Source: a phage. Taken from it: a stretch of DNA of 64,000 nt. Position numbers and translations under genes: made by a program. This document shows positions 9,879 through 21,406 of this stretch, one piece after another (the first letter of the stretch is position 1; every line of letters begins with the position of its first letter). The notes under the pieces were generated by a model that was given only the letters and a program-made list of their open reading frames with translations, was not told where the DNA came from and did no database searches. The stretch is taken from the sequence record PZ338878.1; one strand, 5' to 3'.

Positions 9879-10982
9879 TTAAAGTAGACCACGTTTAACA
9901 GTTTGAATCATACCATCTTCAAGAGATTGCACTTCTTGAATGTAATCAATACGAGCAGCACGGGCTTCAGTGTTGATTCGGTTAGTTTCTTCCAACATTT
10001 TAACTAAGTTTTCTTGATCGCGACGTAATGTTTCAATATCCAATACTTGACGATTAGCAAGTTGCGTAGCTTCAATTTGGTTTTGTGCAGCCAGATCACT
10101 ACCCATTGCAATAGCAGCATTAAATTCATTCAGTACATTGTTCTGTGTATCGGCTGCTTTCTTCTGGCGTAGACTTTCAATATACATAGAAAAGTTTGCA
10201 GAGTAAGCAGGAATAACATTATTCACAATATTACGGGCTGATCGCATCAAACTTGCAGATACTTTCTGCATACTTTGTACACGTGGCCCCATCTGAACAC
10301 ACAGTAAACGCAAGGCTTTCAGGTCTGCAATACGAATTTCAAGCAGATCCATAGTATCACGAGTACGTTGACGCTCTTCTACTTCATTTTCAGGTAGTGT
10401 ATTAAGGCGAACTTCTTCTTTTTCATAAGTAGCTGTTAGAAGCTCTATATCCCTGTTTAAGCTAAGAGCATATTTTGCAATAGCCTCTTCTAAACGTTGC
10501 AGATATCGTAAAGAATCTTCTTCTTTTTTCAAGTCTGTTTGGAGTGTCTTTACCAAACCTTCAATACGATTATTGATGGTGTCAAATTCACCAAACAAAT
10601 CTTCTTTCATACCTAATACTTTCTTAACTAGTTTACCTAAGCCTTTAGATTGTTTAATAGAATTAGGATCAAGTTGCTTTGCTTGCTTAATAAGTGCAGT
10701 TAAACGCTCACTCATTTCATCTCCCTGAGATGAACGCTGGTGTTTAAGCACTTCCGCATTAAGGTTACGAAGAGTAAGTCCTGCATCAGCACCAACCTGT
10801 TCAATCTCTTCACGAGACATTGGAGGCAGCATTTGTACAGGTCGTGCAACAGCAGGGGCATATACAGGGCTTGCATCCATAGCAGTTGGAGCAAACAAAG
10901 ACTTACTTTTTTCTGTTGTTGCCGTGAATACACTCATTTCAGACGGTTTGCTTTTTACGGCACTGATAAAAGGACTGGACAT
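9879..10982 (-). CDS. TelA-like protein (toxic-anion-resistance / KlaA family)
   Basis: 367 aa; long helical coiled-coil body and N-terminal region resembling TelA; call rests on overall pattern rather than one motif; SD GGAGGA. Confidence 0.5.
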   Translation of the reverse strand: MSSPFISAVKSKPSEMSVFTATTEKSKSLFAPTAMDASPVYAPAVARPVQMLPPMSREEIEQVGADAGLTLRNLNAEVLKHQRSSQGDEMSERLTALIKQAKQLDPNSIKQSKGLGKLVKKVLGMKEDLFGEFDTINNRIEGLVKTLQTDLKKEEDSLRYLQRLEEAIAKYALSLNRDIELLTATYEKEEVRLNTLPENEVEERQRTRDTMDLLEIRIADLKALRLLCVQMGPRVQSMQKVSASLMRSARNIVNNVIPAYSANFSMYIESLRQKKAADTQNNVLNEFNAAIAMGSDLAAQNQIEATQLANRQVLDIETLRRDQENLVKMLEETNRINTEARAARIDYIQEVQSLEDGMIQTVKRGLL

Positions 10983-11050
10983 TCAATTTCCTCCATATTC
11001 TTTAGTAGATGGTGATACCTCTGTACCACCATCATAACACAAATTAAGTA

Positions 11051-11902
11051 TTAAACAAACATATCTAAATAATTTGTAGTAATAAATGCTCCATCTGCTT
11101 CCAGATTAACATAACCAGTAGCATTAGTGGTTAAGAAATCCAGATCGAAGGACTCTTTAACACCCCGTACCTCAACACGAGAGATATCGAATACAGGTAG
11201 TGTAACAGCCTCTTCGTGCAATACCGTACCTTTGTAGGTTGCCTTAATGATAAACTTGATATTACCCGTTCCCGCATCATACAAAACACTTTCAAAGCCT
11301 TTGAGAGTATACTTATCACCAGAGGTGAAGTGCAAAGTTGCTTTGTTTACAGTACGTTTTTTACGAGGAGTTCCTTTCACACGTTTATGATCACTACGTT
11401 TTTTGTATTTAGGAATGAATACAAACGATACACTCTCAAGAAAAGTATCAACATCAAGGATTTTAATATCCTCTGTTGCAGCAAATTTTGAAGTCGTTGC
11501 ATCAAAATGCTTTGCTCTGCGATCATACATAAAGATATCAAACCGATCTTCTAAATCAAACAAATTGTGTATCTTAATTTCAGAATGCTTGCACATTGCA
11601 GCAACCTTAAACTCTTCAAAACGTGGGTGTTCTACAAGCTCTTCAAGTTTTACACCAAAGACAGTATATTGTTTCGAAGTTTTTTCTGGCGTTGGCATTA
11701 CAGAAGCATAATCACCGATTGCGCTTTTAAAGCAAAATTGTTCTTGACCTGTATTTTTACCAACGAATTTACAGTATTCGTCATCGTGCATACTTTCTTT
11801 GGTAGTACCAACAAACTCAAAACCATCTTTATTCTTCTCAAGAATTTCTTGATTAAAGATCCAACCTTCCAGGCGATACACTTTACCAACTTCTAGTTTC
11901 AT
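11051..11902 (-). CDS. hypothetical protein (283 aa)
   Basis: ORF track; no motif. Confidence 0.4.
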   Translation of the reverse strand: MKLEVGKVYRLEGWIFNQEILEKNKDGFEFVGTTKESMHDDEYCKFVGKNTGQEQFCFKSAIGDYASVMPTPEKTSKQYTVFGVKLEELVEHPRFEEFKVAAMCKHSEIKIHNLFDLEDRFDIFMYDRRAKHFDATTSKFAATEDIKILDVDTFLESVSFVFIPKYKKRSDHKRVKGTPRKKRTVNKATLHFTSGDKYTLKGFESVLYDAGTGNIKFIIKATYKGTVLHEEAVTLPVFDISRVEVRGVKESFDLDFLTTNATGYVNLEADGAFITTNYLDMFV

Positions 11903-11937
11903 CTGTTTCTCCTTCTTATTTAATCTGTATTAAATTA

Positions 11938-12528
11938 TTAACGACGACGTGAGCTACTAAAACTACGTTTCGACGAAGAATAACTTTTCGAAGACTTACT
12001 ATAAGAGCTAATAGGGCTTGAGTAAGACTTACGAGCAGAGTAATCACTATTCACTTTTGTTGTTGATGGGCGTGAATACGTTTGTACACTTTGCTGCTTA
12101 ATTGTGTTTTGTTTAGTTGTTGTATATGTATTCCCTTGTTTATCATAAAAACTATGCTTTTGTGTTGTATATGATTTACTGTTAGTTGTAGGAGCAGCGT
12201 TGTTATTAATAATTGTTGTATTGCTACCGCCATCTCTATAACCACCACCGCCACTATTACCACTCAACATATGACCAAGAAGCATACCTGTAGCAAATTC
12301 ACCTACACCAGAAGAACCACTGCCGCCTCCTTGCACAACAACTGTTGAAGGCTGTGCAGGTGCTGCTTGAACAACTTGAGGTGCAGGTTGATTTACATAT
12401 TGTTCATCTACCATCTGATTTGGTGTCTGTTGGTAACGTTGGTTTTGTACATTTTCAGAATCATCACAACCTACCAGCAATGCACTACCTAAAACAACTG
12501 CAACAATAAAAGATTTAATGTTTTTCAT
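11938..12528 (-). CDS. lipoprotein with glycine zipper and low-complexity Ser/Tyr/Lys tail
   Basis: Trimmed in frame to ATG 12528 (MKNIKSF, AGAGGG upstream); lipobox LLVGC; GGGSGSSGVGEFATGMLLGHMLSG. Confidence 0.5.
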   Translation of the reverse strand: MKNIKSFIVAVVLGSALLVGCDDSENVQNQRYQQTPNQMVDEQYVNQPAPQVVQAAPAQPSTVVVQGGGSGSSGVGEFATGMLLGHMLSGNSGGGGYRDGGSNTTIINNNAAPTTNSKSYTTQKHSFYDKQGNTYTTTKQNTIKQQSVQTYSRPSTTKVNSDYSARKSYSSPISSYSKSSKSYSSSKRSFSSSRRR

Positions 12529-12721
12529 TTGTAACCCTCTCATTTAAAGTCTCGACACAATTTTTAAAATCTCTAGAGAAACAATACATCTGTTCTCCGT
12601 TCCTGTTGATAGTAATTGTATGGTTATCAACATATGTTGTCAAGATAAAAATCAAACAAAATAACCCTAAAGCAAAACAAATATTTTCAAACAGAATCCA
12701 AAGAACACGTAAAACCACCAT
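12515..12721 (-). CDS. small hydrophobic protein (68 aa)
   Basis: ORF track; predicted TM segment; weak. Confidence 0.3.
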   Translation of the reverse strand: MVVLRVLWILFENICFALGLFCLIFILTTYVDNHTITINRNGEQMYCFSRDFKNCVETLNERVTNEKH

Positions 12722-12730
12722 CAGATCACC

Positions 12731-12754
12731 TCAATAAAGCCCCCGAAGGGGCTT
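12731..12754 (-). terminator. putative intrinsic terminator after TerC gene
   Basis: GC hairpin aagcccc-cgaa-ggggctt followed by a short U-rich tract on the minus strand. Confidence 0.35.
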
Positions 12755-12760
12755 AATAAA

Positions 12761-13738
12761 TTAAGCAACAGACTGGTCTTCTTTTTCAGGGAAGATTAAA
12801 CTTGCAATAACACCCAGCCCCAGAGTACCTAACACAATATACATACTGATCGTCGGATCAATGTGTGCTGGCAGGAAACTCACTTTTGCGTGCAGAGTTT
12901 CTGCAAACGGGTGATACATCAGTTTTACACCCACAAATACCAGGACTACGATAACTGCTTTCTCCAGATGAACCAAATATTTCAGTGCAACACTAAGGAC
13001 AAAGAACAGAGCACGCAGACCTAAAATTGCACACAGCATTGAAGAAAATACAAGCAGAGGTTCTTGTGTCACTGCAATTACTGCTGGAACAGAGTCTACT
13101 GCAAAAATTACGTCAACCATTTCCATTACAAATACACAAACCAATGCAGGAGTTGCTACACGAACACCATTTTTGATTGTGAAGAACTTCTCACCATCCA
13201 TCTGATCAGATACAGGGAACAGCTTACGAACAATGCGAGTAGCCCAGTGCTTAGAGTAATCAACTTCTGCGTCATTATCTCCAGCAAATACCATTTTAGC
13301 TGCACAGAAAAGGATGACCGCACCGAAGAAGATATTAACATACCAACCCAAACTCAACAAGTAAGTGCCTACTGCTACAAACACACCTCGGAAGACAATC
13401 GCACCTGCAATACCCCAAAGTAGAATCTTGTGTTGCAAGTGTGTGCTTTTAATACCAAAACTTGCGAATACTGCCACAAATACTACTAAGTTATCTACAG
13501 AAAGAGATTTCTCCAACACATACCCACTCAAAAACAAGCTCGCAAAATCAGCACCGTGTTGGAAGTATACAAAACCATAGTAGGCTAACGATACCCCAAT
13601 CCAGAAAATTGACCAGCCAATTGCAGATTTAAATGAAATTTCTTTGTTTTCTCTGTGTCCAAAGAAATCAATACAAATCGACAAGACTAAAATACCCACT
13701 AAAACAACCACATCAATAATTGGGAAACCCAGTTGCAT
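12761..13738 (-). CDS. TerC-family integral membrane protein
   Basis: 325 aa, multi-pass hydrophobic; YVLEKSLSVDNLVVFVAVF is the TerC signature; SD AGAGGAG. Confidence 0.8.
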   Translation of the reverse strand: MQLGFPIIDVVVLVGILVLSICIDFFGHRENKEISFKSAIGWSIFWIGVSLAYYGFVYFQHGADFASLFLSGYVLEKSLSVDNLVVFVAVFASFGIKSTHLQHKILLWGIAGAIVFRGVFVAVGTYLLSLGWYVNIFFGAVILFCAAKMVFAGDNDAEVDYSKHWATRIVRKLFPVSDQMDGEKFFTIKNGVRVATPALVCVFVMEMVDVIFAVDSVPAVIAVTQEPLLVFSSMLCAILGLRALFFVLSVALKYLVHLEKAVIVVLVFVGVKLMYHPFAETLHAKVSFLPAHIDPTISMYIVLGTLGLGVIASLIFPEKEDQSVA

Positions 13739-13757
13739 TCTTTTCTCCTCTTTAATG

Positions 13758-13776
13758 CGGAGGACAATCCTCCGCT
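13758..13776 (-). promoter_or_regulatory. stem-loop in 5-prime UTR of TerC gene
   Basis: gcggagg-acaat-cctccgc perfect 7-bp stem, about 15 nt upstream of the TerC SD. Confidence 0.35.
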
Positions 13777-13815
13777 CTATGTCGTATACTATAAACTGTT
13801 TTTAAAGAAAGTCAA

Positions 13816-14064
13816 CTAGTTCAGTTCTGTAATTTTAAGTTTATCTTCTTTGTTAATGATAGGGAAAGCTACAGCATCACCTACATCATCAATAAAGCAA
13901 ACAGCAAGACCACCTTCCACTTTGCTAACCTGACCATTAAAGGCGTGATACGGGGCAGGAACAATATCTCCATCTTCAAGGAGAATAGCCTCATAAACCT
14001 TACCAATAGTACAATCACGAGTGTTTTTAAATTTTTCAAGCACTTCAACATTTACTTTACGCAT
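13816..14064 (-). CDS. hypothetical protein (82 aa)
   Basis: ORF track; no motif. Confidence 0.4.
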   Translation of the reverse strand: MRKVNVEVLEKFKNTRDCTIGKVYEAILLEDGDIVPAPYHAFNGQVSKVEGGLAVCFIDDVGDAVAFPIINKEDKLKITELN

Positions 14065-14078
14065 ATAAAGATCCTCTC

Positions 14079-14285
14079 TTATTTGTTAGATTGAAAGATA
14101 CCACGAAGTACCGCAAGAATGAACGTCACACAGACTACACTCCAAAACGTTACAGGAACATGATGCCAGTCTAAGCCGATAATGTCAATCATATAGTTGT
14201 ATGCTAAAAGCAGTAGCCAACTAGGGATTAACACAATCAAGAACACAACAATAAAACAACCTAATACTGCTAAAACACCTGCCAT
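14079..14285 (-). CDS. small membrane protein (68 aa)
   Basis: ORF track; two hydrophobic segments. Confidence 0.4.
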   Translation of the reverse strand: MAGVLAVLGCFIVVFLIVLIPSWLLLLAYNYMIDIIGLDWHHVPVTFWSVVCVTFILAVLRGIFQSNK

Positions 14286-14294
14286 ACTTTCTCC

Positions 14295-15011
14295 TTATTT
14301 CAGTTTGTAAACAATTACATTTAAACCTTTGTTCACTAGAGTTTCTTCGATCATAAGTTTTACAATATTCCAAGAACCTCCAGCCAAACCACAACCAAGC
14401 ATTGGTAAACCTACAATTTTACCGCCTGAAGATACAACATCGTCTCCCATACTATCTAACGCATTGTAGATAGCTTCATAATTCAGGTCACGCTTACCTT
14501 CCTCACGACGACTATAACCATATTGTCCATATAAATTATAAATTGTCAAATTGTTTTCTGTATACTTAGTAAACGTACCTAATTTTTTATAATCACCACG
14601 TTTAGTGGCACAATCTGCTTTAAACGCACCAGGCCACTTGCTTTTAATTTTTGGTGCAATACCACTACCCATAGTGCAAAAACAGTTACAGCAGTGTGCT
14701 ATAGCGTCTATATCGCCTCTCTCTGCTGCTGCTAAAAGATCACCGTATACCTCAATGATACCTGGTGGATAACTTGTTACAATTTCATCTTCCCAGTACA
14801 TTTGCTCTACACCACCGATCAGTGCAAAGTTTTGTGTGATGCGATCATCAATATAATTAAGACCTGAAACATACACAGCATATTCATCCTGTGCTGTAAT
14901 GCCTTGTACACGAATTCTTAAGACACCATCTTTATCTGTTGCTACACGCCCAAAATCTTTTTCTGTAATATTGGTGATAGGATCTCCGAAAGTCGTCACT
15001 TTATTAGACAT
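14295..15011 (-). CDS. macro-domain protein, TARG1/DarG-like (putative ADP-ribose hydrolase)
   Basis: Track TTG start replaced by in-frame ATG 15011 (AAGGGG upstream); AIAHCCNCFCTMGSGIAPKIKSKW and GLPMLGCGLAGGSWNIVKLMIEE parallel the TARG1 motifs as recalled (HC...C.MG.GIA and IGCGL...W..V); about 100-aa N-terminal extension of unknown function. Confidence 0.55.
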   Translation of the reverse strand: MSNKVTTFGDPITNITEKDFGRVATDKDGVLRIRVQGITAQDEYAVYVSGLNYIDDRITQNFALIGGVEQMYWEDEIVTSYPPGIIEVYGDLLAAAERGDIDAIAHCCNCFCTMGSGIAPKIKSKWPGAFKADCATKRGDYKKLGTFTKYTENNLTIYNLYGQYGYSRREEGKRDLNYEAIYNALDSMGDDVVSSGGKIVGLPMLGCGLAGGSWNIVKLMIEETLVNKGLNVIVYKLK

Positions 15012-15073
15012 AATAATCCCCTTTAACATTAGATTTGTTGATAATGTTGCTTTCAAAAAATTGACGCAGGAAA

Positions 15074-15862
15074 TCAAAGTTCTCTTTGTATTTTTTCAAT
15101 ATTATTGTAACCTTCTGCAAGGCAACCAAAGAACAGTTGTTCTACATAATACAAAGGAAGTTGTGAAAGTGCAATTTTAAAATCAACTTCGCTTTGACTC
15201 ATTAGATACTTAATAGGACGAACCAAACATTTAGCATCAGTTTCTTGCTTAATCATTTTAATAAAAGCTGCCAAGTTATTGATATAGTTGAAGTTAAGTG
15301 CAGCTTCGGTGTTGGCTTCTGTACCTTCATACTTTGCAAAGTACAGGAAAAACGTATCGTTTTCAACACCTTCTTTGTCTAAAATTTCAATAAGTTTTTC
15401 TTCGTGTGTTCCTGTAATATTAACATCATCAATGAAAATCAGAGTTTTATTACCCCAGAAATCACGATTGATAGAGAAAGTGTCACCATCGATCAAAGCC
15501 TTACGATCTTCTTTGCTAAGAAATCCATAATCATTGATATAACTCACTTTACGATGAACGATATCCCACTCTACTGCTTTACCTCCTTTGATAGAGATTA
15601 GGTAGTTGAGGTGATCTACAAAATGCTCAGATAACACTGTAGCTGCATTTTTCACATAGTTATATGGAGATGGAATAACAACAAAACTTTCATTTGCCAG
15701 TCGTTCTTCATACTTAGAAAAGAAACTTTCAGCCAAAATGCGCCCCATTCTTTTTGCTGCCTGGTTACTACCAAACTTTAGTTTGGAATAATCTGCAATA
15801 TTAAATTTTGCTTCCTTCAGGTTAGTAAAAGTATTAGCAAAATGTTGAATTTGATTACGCAT
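15074..15862 (-). CDS. phosphoribosyltransferase (type I PRTase) domain protein
   Basis: 262 aa; TLIFIDDVNITGTHEEKL is the PRPP-binding signature; SD AGAGGAA. Confidence 0.55.
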   Translation of the reverse strand: MRNQIQHFANTFTNLKEAKFNIADYSKLKFGSNQAAKRMGRILAESFFSKYEERLANESFVVIPSPYNYVKNAATVLSEHFVDHLNYLISIKGGKAVEWDIVHRKVSYINDYGFLSKEDRKALIDGDTFSINRDFWGNKTLIFIDDVNITGTHEEKLIEILDKEGVENDTFFLYFAKYEGTEANTEAALNFNYINNLAAFIKMIKQETDAKCLVRPIKYLMSQSEVDFKIALSQLPLYYVEQLFFGCLAEGYNNIEKIQREL

Positions 15863-16511
15863 TAATAAGTTCCTCTTTTTTAAGTTTAGCCAACAAGTCT
15901 TCTGGATTAATAATATGACAGAACTTCATCCCTATGTCAACAGCTTTTCCATCATAAATCAAACTATCTCCAACGTGTAAAATCTCCTCTGGTGCGAGAT
16001 CAAACGTTACCATTTCATCAAAAGAGAGTTTAAAAAACCTAGGATCTGGTTTACACAAGCAAAACTCATCAGAAAAATGCATAAAGTCAAATGGTAATTT
16101 TGTTAAGCCAGAATATACAGCTAAGAAACTACCTGGTACAAAATTAGTATTGCTCTTAATACTCAAAGAATAGATTGAACTCAGCTCTTCCAATTTCTTG
16201 CAAAGCTCAGGGTTCAATATTGGAGGATGTTTTATAAACATTGCTAAACAGTCTCTTTTTAACCCATCCACTTTATCAAGATCAATGTTCAAACGAGTAG
16301 AAAGTGTTTCCCAAGCATTCCTAGACGTTCCACAAATGCCTTTTTCTGCTTTTAAATCCAGGAGAGTTTTTACCTCTTTATATACGGTAGCTGCTTCTGC
16401 CTCAGAACAAGAGGCATACTCGGCAATAACCTTGTTGCGTTCTTCTGCATACAAAGGATTAGCAGTAATAAGAGTATTCCATACATCAAAAGAAATATGC
16501 TTAACAGTCAT
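15855..16511 (-). CDS. HAD-superfamily hydrolase (haloacid dehalogenase-like)
   Basis: Trimmed in frame to ATG 16511 (MTVKH, GGAGGA upstream); motif I ISFDVWNTL near the N-terminus, C-terminal GDSLIYDGKAVD. Confidence 0.5.
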   Translation of the reverse strand: MTVKHISFDVWNTLITANPLYAEERNKVIAEYASCSEAEAATVYKEVKTLLDLKAEKGICGTSRNAWETLSTRLNIDLDKVDGLKRDCLAMFIKHPPILNPELCKKLEELSSIYSLSIKSNTNFVPGSFLAVYSGLTKLPFDFMHFSDEFCLCKPDPRFFKLSFDEMVTFDLAPEEILHVGDSLIYDGKAVDIGMKFCHIINPEDLLAKLKKEELINA

Positions 16512-16513
16512 TT

Positions 16514-16669
16514 TTAATCCTCCGTCCAAAAGAATATCATCTGCTTAATTTTATTGATCTCTTGATGTAGTAACTTTCCAGCATGTGATTGATCTTTAAT
16601 ATTGACAGCAAGAATTTCAAGCTCCGTTAGTTTTTCCTGAATAGCTTTATATTCATCATCTGTAAGCAT
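16514..16669 (-). CDS. hypothetical small protein (51 aa)
   Basis: Manual translation MLTDDEYKAIQEKLTELEILAVNIKDQ...; AGGGGAAG upstream; its stop overlaps the SD of the HAD gene. Confidence 0.3.
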   Translation of the reverse strand: MLTDDEYKAIQEKLTELEILAVNIKDQSHAGKLLHQEINKIKQMIFFWTED

Positions 16670-18099: not shown

Positions 18100-18570
18100 T
18101 TAGTCAGATTCCCAAATGTTGTCTTTCTTAACCCACATTCGTTGATTATCTGAACCTCTATAACGTTTCGTTGTTGGTTGATTCATATCATACTTACCAT
18201 CTATCACTATGTCAACCAGTTTTTTAATTTTTTCTGGAATTTCTTCAAAAAGATATCCTGTATATAAGACAATATCTTTTTTGTTTCCAAAACAATCTCT
18301 TACCTTCTCAAGAACATACTCTACAGTGTCAATGTTCTCTTTGTCAAGAGGTTCACCACCTAAAACTGTTAATCCTTTAATGAAAGGTCGAGATAAATCT
18401 TCCAAGATAAGATCTAATGTTTCAACAGTGAACTCTTGTCCGTAATTATACGACCAGGCTTTCTGGTTAAAGCAGCCACGGCAACCGTGGCTACAACCGC
18501 TCACCCACAAAGAGCATCTTACACCGTCACCGTTGAGCATGTCAACAGGTTCATATCCGGCGTAATTCAA
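18100..18570 (-). CDS. nrdG: anaerobic ribonucleotide reductase activating protein (radical SAM)
   Basis: 156 aa; CSHGCRGC is a CxxxCxxC cluster; 4-nt overlap with nrdD. Confidence 0.85.
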   Translation of the reverse strand: MNYAGYEPVDMLNGDGVRCSLWVSGCSHGCRGCFNQKAWSYNYGQEFTVETLDLILEDLSRPFIKGLTVLGGEPLDKENIDTVEYVLEKVRDCFGNKKDIVLYTGYLFEEIPEKIKKLVDIVIDGKYDMNQPTTKRYRGSDNQRMWVKKDNIWESD

Positions 18571-20366
18571 AAATGTTTCTCCCTTTCTAGTACCTCTTGC
18601 ATTTTACCTTTGTTATAAGGGCGAGAGTTAGGGGCAGAAAGGTATCCTGACACTCTTCTGATCACAGATATGGATTCTTCTTCATGATTACCGCAACTTG
18701 GACACTCGAAGCCTTTAGCCGTTGCTTTAAATTCACCATGAAAACCACATTTGAAACACTGATCTACAGGTTGGTTCACGCCAAAATAAGGAATTTTATT
18801 GTAGGCATAATCTACAAGAGTTTCCAGTGCTTGCAAGTTATTTTTAAGGTTTGGTGTTTCTACATAACCTATGTTCCCACCATTACTAATTTGTGCAAAA
18901 CCTTCCTCATAATCCCATTTTTGGAACGGGGTAGTGTGCATCCATACAGGTTGATGGAAAGAGTTTGTCAAGTAGTCACGATCAATAGAACCAGGATAGC
19001 GATCATTTAATGCTTTGGCAAATTTATAGCACAAGGATTCTGCTGGTGTTCCATACAAACTAAAAGCTAAACCAGAACGTTCTTTAAATGTGCAACAGAT
19101 ATCCTTCATATATTGAAGGATGTTTTTACCCATTGCTTTTGGATTGGTGTTATTTGGGTATAAAATCTCCATAGCTTCTGCTAAACCTACATAACCGATA
19201 CTAATAGAGGCATAGCCACCTTCAAATAGTTTACCAATCTCTTCATTAGCTTCTAATCGAGCTAAAGCCCCTTCCATAAACAATGTAGGGTTTTGAGATG
19301 CTTTGGTATGTCTAATACGGTTAACACGTAGCATATGTGCCTTATACGCCATCTCCATATGTTGTTCCAACAGTTCAGTAAATAAGATGCCCTTTTCACG
19401 GGACTCTGCTGCAATGATAGGTAAGTTTAAAGAAACTACGCCTAAGTTGAAACGACCATCATATTTTTCACCTTGCTCTGTTGCATAGTATGACAAGAAA
19501 CTACGGCAACCCATGCTTGTGACGCGACCATCTGAAGATCCTGTAACTTCTTTGTTTAAAGGTACAGAGATAAAATCAGGATAAATGCGTTCAGCACAAC
19601 ACTCCATTGCCAGTTGCTTCAAATCATAGTTTGGATCACCAGCTTTCATGTTAACACCATCTTCCAAGAAGAAGATAACTTTAGGAAACACAGGAGTTAC
19701 CCTATCTTTTCCTAATCCTTGTTTGTGCACCATTAGGTAGTTTTTAGTGATCATTCTACCAAAAGCAGAGGTATCCAAACCTAAACTAATTGTTATAAAA
19801 GGTGACTGACCATTTACACTCATTAGGGTGTTCACCTGGTAGATTAAAGTTTGCATTGCATCATAGACCTGTTTATCTACCATACGCATAGCAATATCAT
19901 AATCGCCAACATCGGCATATATTTTATTAAAACTTGCTTTAACGTATTGACTAAGCCCAGTATCAATATGTGCACAAGTTTGTCCACCATATTGGCTAGA
20001 AGCTACTGCTTGAATAATTTGAGTTAGAACAGTAGTTGCTACACCGATAGATTTTGGTTTTTCAATATGTGCATTACCAATACGGAAACCGTTCTCAAGC
20101 ATATCTTGGTAATTTACCAGGCAACAATTAGTTAAAGGTGAGAGTAAATAATCTAAATCGTGAATGTGACCATACCCGCTTTTATGCCATTCTGCTAGAT
20201 CTTCCGGTAAAATATGGGTCATTGCCATGTGCTTGCTCAGGATACCTGCTAGTAAGTCTCGGTGAGTATTAACAATCATTGCAGGTTTGTTTGCATTTTC
20301 ACGAGTAAATTCTTCGGATGTTTGTTCGAGGAATCCGATTACATCCTCATATAGTTTTTGGGTCAT
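18567..20366 (-). CDS. nrdD: anaerobic ribonucleoside-triphosphate reductase (class III)
   Basis: Trimmed in frame to ATG 20366 (GGAGGA upstream); C-terminal zinc ribbon CFKCG...CPSCG and glycyl-radical motif RVSGY. Confidence 0.85.
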   Translation of the reverse strand: MTQKLYEDVIGFLEQTSEEFTRENANKPAMIVNTHRDLLAGILSKHMAMTHILPEDLAEWHKSGYGHIHDLDYLLSPLTNCCLVNYQDMLENGFRIGNAHIEKPKSIGVATTVLTQIIQAVASSQYGGQTCAHIDTGLSQYVKASFNKIYADVGDYDIAMRMVDKQVYDAMQTLIYQVNTLMSVNGQSPFITISLGLDTSAFGRMITKNYLMVHKQGLGKDRVTPVFPKVIFFLEDGVNMKAGDPNYDLKQLAMECCAERIYPDFISVPLNKEVTGSSDGRVTSMGCRSFLSYYATEQGEKYDGRFNLGVVSLNLPIIAAESREKGILFTELLEQHMEMAYKAHMLRVNRIRHTKASQNPTLFMEGALARLEANEEIGKLFEGGYASISIGYVGLAEAMEILYPNNTNPKAMGKNILQYMKDICCTFKERSGLAFSLYGTPAESLCYKFAKALNDRYPGSIDRDYLTNSFHQPVWMHTTPFQKWDYEEGFAQISNGGNIGYVETPNLKNNLQALETLVDYAYNKIPYFGVNQPVDQCFKCGFHGEFKATAKGFECPSCGNHEEESISVIRRVSGYLSAPNSRPYNKGKMQEVLEREKHF

Positions 20367-20379
20367 TAATCCTCCGTGG

Positions 20380-20406
20380 AAAATAAAAGCCAGCATTAAG
20401 CTGGCT
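20380..20406 (-). terminator. intrinsic terminator upstream of nrdD
   Basis: agccagc-attaa-gctggct hairpin followed by UUUUAUUU on the minus strand. Confidence 0.55.
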
Positions 20407-20455: not shown

Positions 20456-21406
20456 TTAGTCAAGGTTTTTGGTAATACGTGTACAACCATCAGAAGTCAA
20501 ACCGTCAACTTGAGTTTCCCAAGTACCATGAATATTTCGGAACAATGTTGTTACACCTTTTGGTTCATTAATAATGATTGCCATAACAAGTTTAGGATCG
20601 ATAACAGACATAATCTTTTCCTCAATACCCTCTGTAATAACATTATTGCGCACAATATTAATTGCATCTTCTTGTACAGTAAGAACACTTACGTTCTTAA
20701 GAGTATATACCTGCTGTGTAGTGTAAATGATACGAACATAACTTACAGAACGAGTAGGCACAGGTTTACGCGGTCGGCGAAAACGTGGTTTTGGTGAAGA
20801 TTCAGTTTTACTTTCATCTTTTGAATAATACTCCTCAAACAGTTTAGTAAATGTTTTTACATCAACTACAAACCGATCTTTCCGATATGGAGAATTCTTA
20901 TGTGCACCATTAATACCACTGTTTTCATCGAAGAAAGTAATGTTTTCTTCAGTTGAATACATTAGATAATGATCTGCATTTTTCCAATGTGGTTGTGGAC
21001 AACGAGGATTACAAACTGAAAGCAGATAACTAATATCTTCTTCCGTGGCATCAGTATCCAGGAAACACGTATTATGCACAGTCAGTTGTACTTTTTCAGC
21101 CATATCTTTTTCTTTATCCTCATTAGCAAGATATTCAGTACGAATAATTTCCAGAAAACCTTCAGGTGTTACTTCCATAAATGTATATTCAGGATGAAGT
21201 TCCATATATTCAAATCCACAACCATCTAACTGCTGTAGAAAGTTAGGGTAGAAGAACAAATCATTAACACTGTGAATCAGATCATTGATTTCTGCTTCAG
21301 TTGTGTAGCCAAAACTCTTGTGAATTGCTTCGTTAAGAATATGCAGGATACCCATCTCTTCTGCTGCTTTTTTAACTTCCAGTTTATTAGCGTAAAATGC
21401 AATCAT
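20456..21406 (-). CDS. hypothetical protein (316 aa)
   Basis: ORF track; no motif. Confidence 0.45.
   Translation of the reverse strand: MIAFYANKLEVKKAAEEMGILHILNEAIHKSFGYTTEAEINDLIHSVNDLFFYPNFLQQLDGCGFEYMELHPEYTFMEVTPEGFLEIIRTEYLANEDKEKDMAEKVQLTVHNTCFLDTDATEEDISYLLSVCNPRCPQPHWKNADHYLMYSTEENITFFDENSGINGAHKNSPYRKDRFVVDVKTFTKLFEEYYSKDESKTESSPKPRFRRPRKPVPTRSVSYVRIIYTTQQVYTLKNVSVLTVQEDAINIVRNNVITEGIEEKIMSVIDPKLVMAIIINEPKGVTTLFRNIHGTWETQVDGLTSDGCTRITKNLD

Follow-up and report, generated by a model that had tools for sequence, protein, structure and literature searches.

What does a phage do with a macro domain that is fused to a second, smaller domain and encoded next to the genes for a phosphoribosyltransferase (PRTase) and a HAD-family phosphatase? 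The question is raised by a minus-strand gene for a 238-residue protein in a 64,000-nucleotide stretch of phage DNA (sequence record PZ338878.1; the whole stretch is called the window here). A preliminary description, made from the sequence alone, had named the product a TARG1/DarG-like macro domain with an extra N-terminal domain, and had proposed that it acts either on an ADP-ribose-containing metabolite made by the neighbouring enzymes or on ADP-ribose attached by host defences. The region around the gene (13700-16600) is 98-99.4% identical in DNA sequence to phi92-like E. coli myophages (Justusliebigvirus, Stephanstirmvirinae), the closest being ECGD1 (99.4%), with phi92 itself at 98.6%, and the gene is the orthologue of Phi92_gp185 and ECGD1_gp194. 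Database names for the orthologues vary: Phi92_gp185 is a "phosphatase" and "potential Tk.4-like", and some records carry a "putative macrodomain protein".

The macro domain that had been read from two motifs is confirmed in fold and class. The Pfam Macro profile (PF01661) scores 31.1 bits over residues 106-217, above its cut-off of 22 (E 2.4e-7). When the single protein is compared with PDB sequences by phmmer, the matches are SCO6735 of Streptomyces coelicolor (E 4.8e-15), BT1257 (5e-15), TARG1 (4e-10) and DarG (1e-3); a 76-member family profile gives 2.7e-23 for BT1257, 7e-21 for TARG1, 4e-20 for SCO6735 and 8e-12 for DarG. The structure prediction for which the preliminary description had called yields a macro fold, with an AlphaFold2 predicted local distance difference test (pLDDT) score above 90 for residues 85-238, and Foldseek matches the model to TARG1 (TM-score 0.88, E 2e-12), BT1257 (0.85), DarG (0.80) and SCO6735 (0.80). 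The PDB yielded 229 Foldseek matches at E <=0.001, and the top 50 are all macrodomains. Because the profile, PDB, AlphaFold2 and Foldseek results agree, the label "TARG1/DarG-like" is correct at the level of class, and residues 85-238 are very probably an ADP-ribosyl hydrolase of the TARG1/DarG/SCO6735 class. The domain starts at about residue 85, and the earlier boundary, which had left the first 100 residues outside it, is too far downstream.

Class membership does not make the protein a DarG. DarG is its sole match in NCBIfam (E 5.5e-13) and its sole match in PADLOC (E 1.1e-13), and both matches are confined to the macro part; the score against the DarG equivalog NF048014 is 48.9 bits, where the cut-off is 250, and covers positions 4-147 of the 338 in the hidden Markov model. 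The C-terminal DarT-binding domain of DarG is absent from the protein, and no darT-like gene was found among the neighbours of the macro gene.

The label also does not extend to the active site. Both motifs quoted in the preliminary description were located, and they form the two glycine-rich loops of the domain (Table 1). In a BLASTP alignment to TARG1, the sequence of which was verified against the PDB, Gln163 stands opposite the catalytic Lys84, and Ala210, within GCGLAGG, stands opposite the dyad partner Asp125. With Lys84 and Asp125 replaced in this way, the covalent lysine mechanism of TARG1 cannot apply. A HMMER alignment to SCO6735 (PDB 5E3B, numbering corrected for a 20-residue tag) instead pairs like with like, Gln163 with Gln85 and Asn109 with Asn27, and places Cys107 at Val25. 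The GQYG of the phage protein aligns with the GQHG of SCO6735, and the loop after Gln163, which carries R166, R167, K171 and R172, aligns free of gaps; Gln at the catalytic position followed by an extended loop is the hallmark of the SCO6735/BT1257 subclass. Gln163, N109, G117, A119, K143, G145, N159, Y161, G206 and L209 are invariant in the 76-sequence family alignment. On these alignments the catalytic residues are assigned to the SCO6735 type, rather than to the Lys or Lys/Asp type of DarG and TARG1. In SCO6735 the residue structurally equivalent to TARG1 Lys84 and DarG Lys80 is Gln85, and the change Q85A abolishes activity; acting on thymidine in DNA, the enzyme efficiently strips off the ADP-ribose that DarT attaches, and cells exposed to DarT are rescued by it (PMC9411070). 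By its position in the shared motif, N109 would correspond to N22 of Thermus aquaticus DarG and N23 of the macrodomain AdfM of phage PhiKZ, where the N23A change reduces activity (PMC13309987).

The macro part is widespread in phages, with tblastn matches in 2991 of 50,697 phage records, including T-even Tk.4, Felixounavirus, Pakpunavirus, Vi1-like and other groups. PHROG 335 holds both the present protein and the T4-type Tk.4, and BLASTP aligns the two over the whole macro domain at 34% identity (E 1e-20). The explicit assignment of the phage Tk.4 family to the Gln type, predicted from these alignments, is a new element of this analysis. The T4 gene tk.4 was the single gene depleted on DarTG2 hosts, its clean knockout was sensitised, and it has been named adfM (preprint of November 2025, bioRxiv 10.1101/2025.11.20.689424); in PhiKZ, AdfM takes DarT2-made ADP-ribose off DNA (PMC13309987). 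It is mainly because of these precedents that we lean towards reading the phi92-type protein as an orphan antitoxin-like DNA de-ADP-ribosylase that acts against DarT2, a member of the phage AdfM/Tk.4 family with SCO6735-type chemistry. The earlier suggestion that the protein reverses ADP-ribosylation imposed by the host has a direct precedent in Tk.4/AdfM (bioRxiv 10.1101/2025.11.20.689424) and in SCO6735 (PMC9411070). Like the AdfM proteins, it is an orphan, encoded apart from any cognate toxin gene and free of the toxin-binding domain of DarG; it departs from their stand-alone architecture of about 150-160 residues in the 84-residue domain fused to its N-terminus.

If this reading is right, the macrodomain would act early in infection. 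A host DarT2-type toxin would ADP-ribosylate thymidines of single-stranded phage DNA, and the two glycine-rich loops and Asn109 of the macrodomain would bind the ADP-ribose. The bond between ribose and thymine would then be cleaved by an SCO6735-type mechanism in which Gln163 positions the distal ribose and neither Lys nor Asp takes part. Release of the ADP-ribose would allow replication of the phage DNA to resume.

Table 1. Features of the macro-domain gene and of its neighbours in the window.
Feature	Position	Strand	Basis and remarks
Whole gene, 238 residues plus stop	14295..15011	(-)	Open reading frame list and sequence; ATG at 15011, end at 14295
Ribosome-binding site AAAGGGGA	15017..15024	(-)	Read from the sequence; GGGG run at 15018-15021, 6 nt upstream of the ATG
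N-terminal domain (N-dom), residues 1-84, core about 10-80; acidic small beta-barrel	14760..15011	(-)	
Macro domain, residues 85-238; ALC1-like (TARG1/DarG/SCO6735) class	14298..14759	(-)	Profiles, AlphaFold2, Foldseek, PHROG 335
Motif HCCNCFCTMGSGIA, residues 106-119; first glycine-rich phosphate-binding loop and invariant N109	14655..14696	(-)	Alignments
Gln163 codon; position of TARG1 Lys84, DarG Lys80 and SCO6735 Gln85	14523..14525	(-)	BLASTP, HMMER
Motif GLPMLGCGLAGGSW, residues 201-214; second glycine-rich loop, Ala210 at the position of TARG1 Asp125	14370..14411	(-)	Alignments
PRTase_3 (ComF-like phosphoribosyltransferase), 262 residues	15074..15862	(-)	Pfam PF15610, E 1.6e-38
HAD-family phosphatase	15855..16529	(-)	Pfam PF00702; NCBIfam HAD-IA matches

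The phi92 and ECGD1 annotations agree with the start codon given in Table 1, and the phi92 record annotates a ribosome-binding site at the same place. Elsewhere in the window, searches detected neither another macro domain nor another copy of the N-terminal domain. Four GenBank records labelled "Campylobacter phage", with Campylobacter jejuni as host (MG065639, MG065645, MG065656 and MG065689), match this region of the E. coli phage at 98% identity, and their host label looks doubtful.

The N-terminal domain (N-dom) had been described as having no recognisable motif. That holds in so far as Pfam has no match to it, but an exhaustive profile search revealed a conserved, mobile phage domain, also carried by about ten further phage proteins, the C-termini of which are unrelated. 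The exhaustive search was required, as word-indexed searches with N-dom alone or with a 12-sequence profile returned fragments only. In a first AlphaFold2 run, made on an alignment dominated by the macro domain, N-dom reached a pLDDT of only 30-60; it was hence run again on its own alignment, and residues of about 10-80 were predicted to form a separately folding, acidic SH3-like beta-barrel. D19, G21, R22, A24, M71 and W73 are invariant in the N-dom family. Among the 120 macro homologues listed, the extension is restricted to the cluster of the phi92-type protein (P0001) and one 53%-identical protein (P0003), and nearly all others are stand-alone proteins of about 150 residues. A further member of the macro family, from Felixounavirus IME338 (L009 3977-4762), is 261 residues long and has an extra C-terminal region of about 100 residues; extra domains were therefore added to the macro family on more than one occasion.

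The partners of N-dom in other proteins were not credibly matched by Pfam, and PHROGs identified two kinds among them. One is a MazG-like pyrophosphatase (phrog_1247; P0124 and P0132). The other is a C-terminus of the phrog_15930 type (P0123, P0125, P0127, P0131 and P0133), a paralogue of the open reading frame at 20456-21406 of the window. There is also a weak match of P0128 to a phrog_27504-like C-terminus that resembles the open reading frame at 11051-11902. By eye, proteins of the P0127 type share with the product of 20456-21406 a basic KPRFxKPRKKPP linker that is followed by a beta-rich C-terminus, and the "ribonucleotide reductase" annotation of that family looks like a mis-annotation. 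Also by eye, the N-termini of P0128 and P0130 resemble the 82-residue product of 13816-14064. These three minus-strand reading frames of the window (20456-21406, 11051-11902 and 13816-14064) seem to be members of a group of small phage modules that have been shuffled.

Gene order in related phages suggests how the fusion came about. The order in Phapecoctavirus is HAD, PRTase, macro. In Klebsiella phage KP13-26, relatives of Citrobacter phage Tr1 and two contigs (L014 and L015) it is HAD, PRTase, N-dom-MazG, macro, and in phi92-like phages and a divergent contig (L004) it is HAD, PRTase, N-dom-macro. The N-dom-MazG proteins thus carry the same N-dom in the same position, directly after the PRTase gene, but differ in having the MazG-like partner, with macro as a separate gene immediately downstream. 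The closest sister lineages, with a PRTase about 80% identical to that of the window, keep the N-dom-MazG arrangement, and we infer that the fusion probably arose in the phi92 lineage by a deletion that took out the MazG half and the initial residues of the macro gene. The fusion, lineage-specific and with an uncharacterised mobile domain as partner, is a second new element. In the Tr1 record itself (L002 3983-4590) the N-dom-MazG gene is split into open reading frames of 142 and 60 residues, and a near-identical metagenomic protein (P0124) is intact at 202 residues; the split is a probable frameshift or sequencing error in that record.

In both lineages that have the fusion, N-dom is still in frame and its invariant residues are retained. 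Against the L004 orthologue, identity is 35% in N-dom and 64% in the macro part, indicating that N-dom evolves the faster of the two; ratios of non-synonymous to synonymous substitution (dN/dS) were uninformative, with dS saturated against L004 and too few differences against phi92 and ECGD1. N-dom is probably a protein-binding or targeting module. A bolder proposal, to which we give little credence, is that it is an undescribed mobile adaptor that docks different hydrolases of nucleotides or ADP-ribose (macro, MazG-like) and other modules onto one shared partner, for example a host toxin such as DarT or the PRTase-HAD/Ter machinery. Were that so, the phi92-type protein would mimic an antitoxin by means of two modules, joining enzymatic reversal to binding as DarG does, but assembled independently from unrelated parts.

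Several points weigh against a role in countering DarT2. No experiment has been done on the phi92-type protein or on any phi92-like phage, and our literature search found no paper linking DarTG to Stephanstirmvirinae. Identity to Tk.4 is 34% only, and the T4 result is a preprint that reports a genetic phenotype, not biochemistry (bioRxiv 10.1101/2025.11.20.689424). The sequence does not reveal the substrate, since protein-Glu-ADP-ribose and O-acetyl-ADP-ribose are likewise hydrolysed by macrodomains of this class. The protein also carries the faster-evolving N-dom, of uncharacterised role. Finally, a shared function would fit the apparent co-transcription of the macro gene with the HAD and PRTase genes, from which no terminator-like site separates it, and the translational coupling of the macro and PRTase genes that is seen in phi92.

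The first alternative is that the protein removes ADP-ribose from protein or RNA rather than DNA, with host toxins or defence ADP-ribosyltransferases as the source of the modification, or that it tunes ADP-ribosylation carried out by the phage's own enzymes. TARG1 and SCO6735, with which it shares its fold and binding loops, hydrolyse protein-linked as well as DNA-linked mono-ADP-ribose (PMC9411070), and the acidic N-terminal barrel suits protein binding better than nucleic-acid binding. Nevertheless, the only phage homologues with a tested role act on the DarT2 modification of DNA, and no ADP-ribosyltransferase gene was seen adjoining the macro gene, although the whole genome was not scanned for one. 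We consider this alternative unlikely.

The second alternative concerns the neighbouring genes. The preliminary description had reported overlapping boundaries; the HAD and PRTase genes do overlap, by 8 nt, but in the window the PRTase reading frame ends at 15074 and leaves 62 nt to the macro ATG. The difference can be traced to a run of six A at 15091-15096, where phi92 has five: the extra A shifts the frame and shortens the PRTase to 262 residues. The phi92 and ECGD1 genes have 858 nt, encode 285 residues and overlap the macro start by 8 nt, and the phi92 frame, continued in the window, would reach a TAA at 15004-15006, overlapping the macro start. Most relatives of the PRTase match the window protein only to residue 257. 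The extra A may be a sequencing error in the homopolymer; otherwise the C-terminus is truly truncated. On the side away from the PRTase gene, the macro gene is flanked by a gene for a 68-residue membrane protein.

These genes are part of a Ter-type cluster on the minus strand (9879-16529) that comprises TelA (9879-10982), TerC (12761-13738) and the PRTase_3 and HAD pair. Phage-borne Ter clusters have been described for large phages by Iyer et al. (PMC7824862), and phi92 further annotates a "putative stress protein" beyond the cluster. HAD lies directly upstream of PRTase in 15 of 15 IMG/VR loci, and the pair is a conserved two-gene module. The PRTase was found in 157 phage records, including jumbo phages of Rhizobium, Xanthomonas, Brevundimonas and Caulobacter. 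In Rhizobium phage RHph_Y65 (L007 3340-5676) the pair is followed by a 62-residue open reading frame and a "bifunctional NMN adenylyltransferase/NUDIX hydrolase" (NMN, nicotinamide mononucleotide), a context that hints at a possible link of the module to NAD or nucleotide metabolism. NARP3 was considered as an explanation of the neighbouring genes and rejected, NARP3 being PnuC plus NadR. A scan for promoters and terminators gave counts equal to those in shuffled sequence, and the operon structure is therefore only suggested. Elsewhere in the window, nrdD (18567-20396) is one uninterrupted open reading frame of 609 residues, whereas the phi92 annotation (L001 10867-12945) splits it into two parts, joined over an intervening stretch of about 246 nt ("spliced variant"); the window phage appears to be without that insertion.

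Might the macrodomain, then, hydrolyse or trim a ribose- or ADP-ribose-containing small molecule of the HAD-PRTase module, the "signal biosynthesis" arm of the phage Ter system, or recycle ADP-ribose for nucleotide or NAD metabolism? Aravind's group predicted that PRTase and HAD make a nucleoside-like signal in Ter systems (PMC7824862). Stephanstirmvirinae conserve the order HAD, PRTase, (N-dom-X), macro, with small membrane proteins and TerC coming next; the 8-nt overlap in phi92 and ECGD1, the lack of a terminator-like site between the PRTase and macro genes, and the MazG-like nucleotide pyrophosphatase at the same spot in sister phages point the same way. In Pakpunavirus PsIn (L006 1-3462) a 45%-identical macro gene is placed directly after genes that bear the annotations "ribose-phosphate pyrophosphokinase family" and "nicotinamide phosphoribosyltransferase". 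We take this pair to resemble the NARP1 NAD-reconstitution pathway, an ADP-ribose consumer, and its position beside an ADP-ribose-releasing macrodomain may not be a coincidence.

The wider distribution argues otherwise. A macro gene lies within 6 kb in only 5 of the 15 IMG/VR HAD-PRTase loci, all with a PRTase at least 66% identical to that of the window; within 4-6 kb none was found at the ten distant IMG/VR loci or in the two distant phages (Rhizobium phage RHph_Y65 and Xanthomonas phage XaC1). On one 153-kb contig (Ga0439438_000010) the macro gene and the HAD-PRTase pair are about 10 kb apart. About 2991 phage records contain the macro family and 157 contain the PRTase, and the macro gene stands in unrelated contexts in T4, 7-11 and Felixounavirus. 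PRTase products, moreover, are N-ribosyl 5'-phosphates, not ADP-ribose conjugates. The absence of a macro gene at the distant HAD-PRTase loci makes the linkage look like inherited synteny within one subfamily, and the earlier proposal of action on a PRTase/HAD metabolite is poorly supported, since no distant phage examined had a macro gene nearby. Co-transcription and translational coupling keep a shared pathway alive, at a low probability.

A housekeeping "phosphatase" or deacetylase acting on free ADP-ribose derivatives (ADP-ribose-1''-phosphate, O-acetyl-ADP-ribose) is very improbable: the database names "phosphatase", "Poa1p-like" and "O-acetyl-ADP-ribose deacetylase" speak for it (TARG1 itself was deposited as "O-acetyl-ADP-ribose deacetylase 1"), as does the detectable relationship to the yeast ADP-ribose-1''-phosphatase Poa1p (family profile E 8e-12, Foldseek TM about 0.74), but the names were carried over by annotation and are not test results, Poa1p scores much lower with the family profile than BT1257, TARG1 and SCO6735 do, no tRNA-splicing or 2'-phosphotransferase-type RNA repair gene was seen nearby, and the strong retention of the family across phages and the DarTG2 phenotype of T4 delta-tk.4 would be left unexplained.

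If the protein does act against DarT2, phi92-like phages carry a counter-defence against this toxin. Such phages are present in E. coli phage-therapy collections, and the gene would then help to predict host range on DarTG2-bearing strains. The analysis ties the large phage "Tk.4/phosphatase" family to the Gln-type mechanism predicted from SCO6735, not to the Lys mechanism of DarG and TARG1, and the fused N-dom draws attention to a small, uncharacterised mobile phage domain with several enzymes of different kinds as partners. These results do not change the accepted picture; they add to a mechanism that was published in 2025-2026.

How, then, does the phi92-type protein compare with the systems already known? 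DarG of DarTG2 (PDB 5M31, 5M3E and 5M3I; NF048014) has the macro fold, and the logic of an orphan antitoxin is the same, but DarG has Lys80 in place of the Gln, a C-terminal DarT-binding domain and an adjacent darT. PhiKZ gp104, AdfM, is likewise a phage orphan macrodomain directed against DarT2-made ADP-ribose, with a conserved Asn (N23) that presumably equals N109; it retains the Lys typical of DarG (K78) and undergoes import into the phage nucleus, a comparison that is drawn from its published description. Human TARG1/OARD1 (PDB 4J5Q-S) is the best structural match, with 30% identity and the same binding loops, but it has the dyad Lys84/Asp125 where the phage protein has Gln163/Ala210. T4 Tk.4, the function of which was tested genetically and in T4 only, is also an orphan gene of a lytic E. 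coli myophage; it shares the HxCNCF...MGSG and GCG(L/I)AGG motifs and has Gln at the catalytic position (LYTQY in Tk.4, LYGQY here). It differs in being a stand-alone macro protein of 159 residues that lacks the N-terminal domain, in the place of its gene between vs and tk with no PRTase or HAD gene nearby, and in a loop after the Gln that is 6 residues shorter. SCO6735 (PDB 5E3B) is a single-domain product of a bacterial chromosomal gene with a proposed role in genome protection, and its Val25, the proposed role of which is exerted through the backbone, is replaced by Cys107. It is nonetheless the best PDB sequence match for the single protein, at about 30% identity, and has the same Gln for the catalytic Lys, the same Ala for TARG1 Asp125, and a basic loop of equal length after the Gln.

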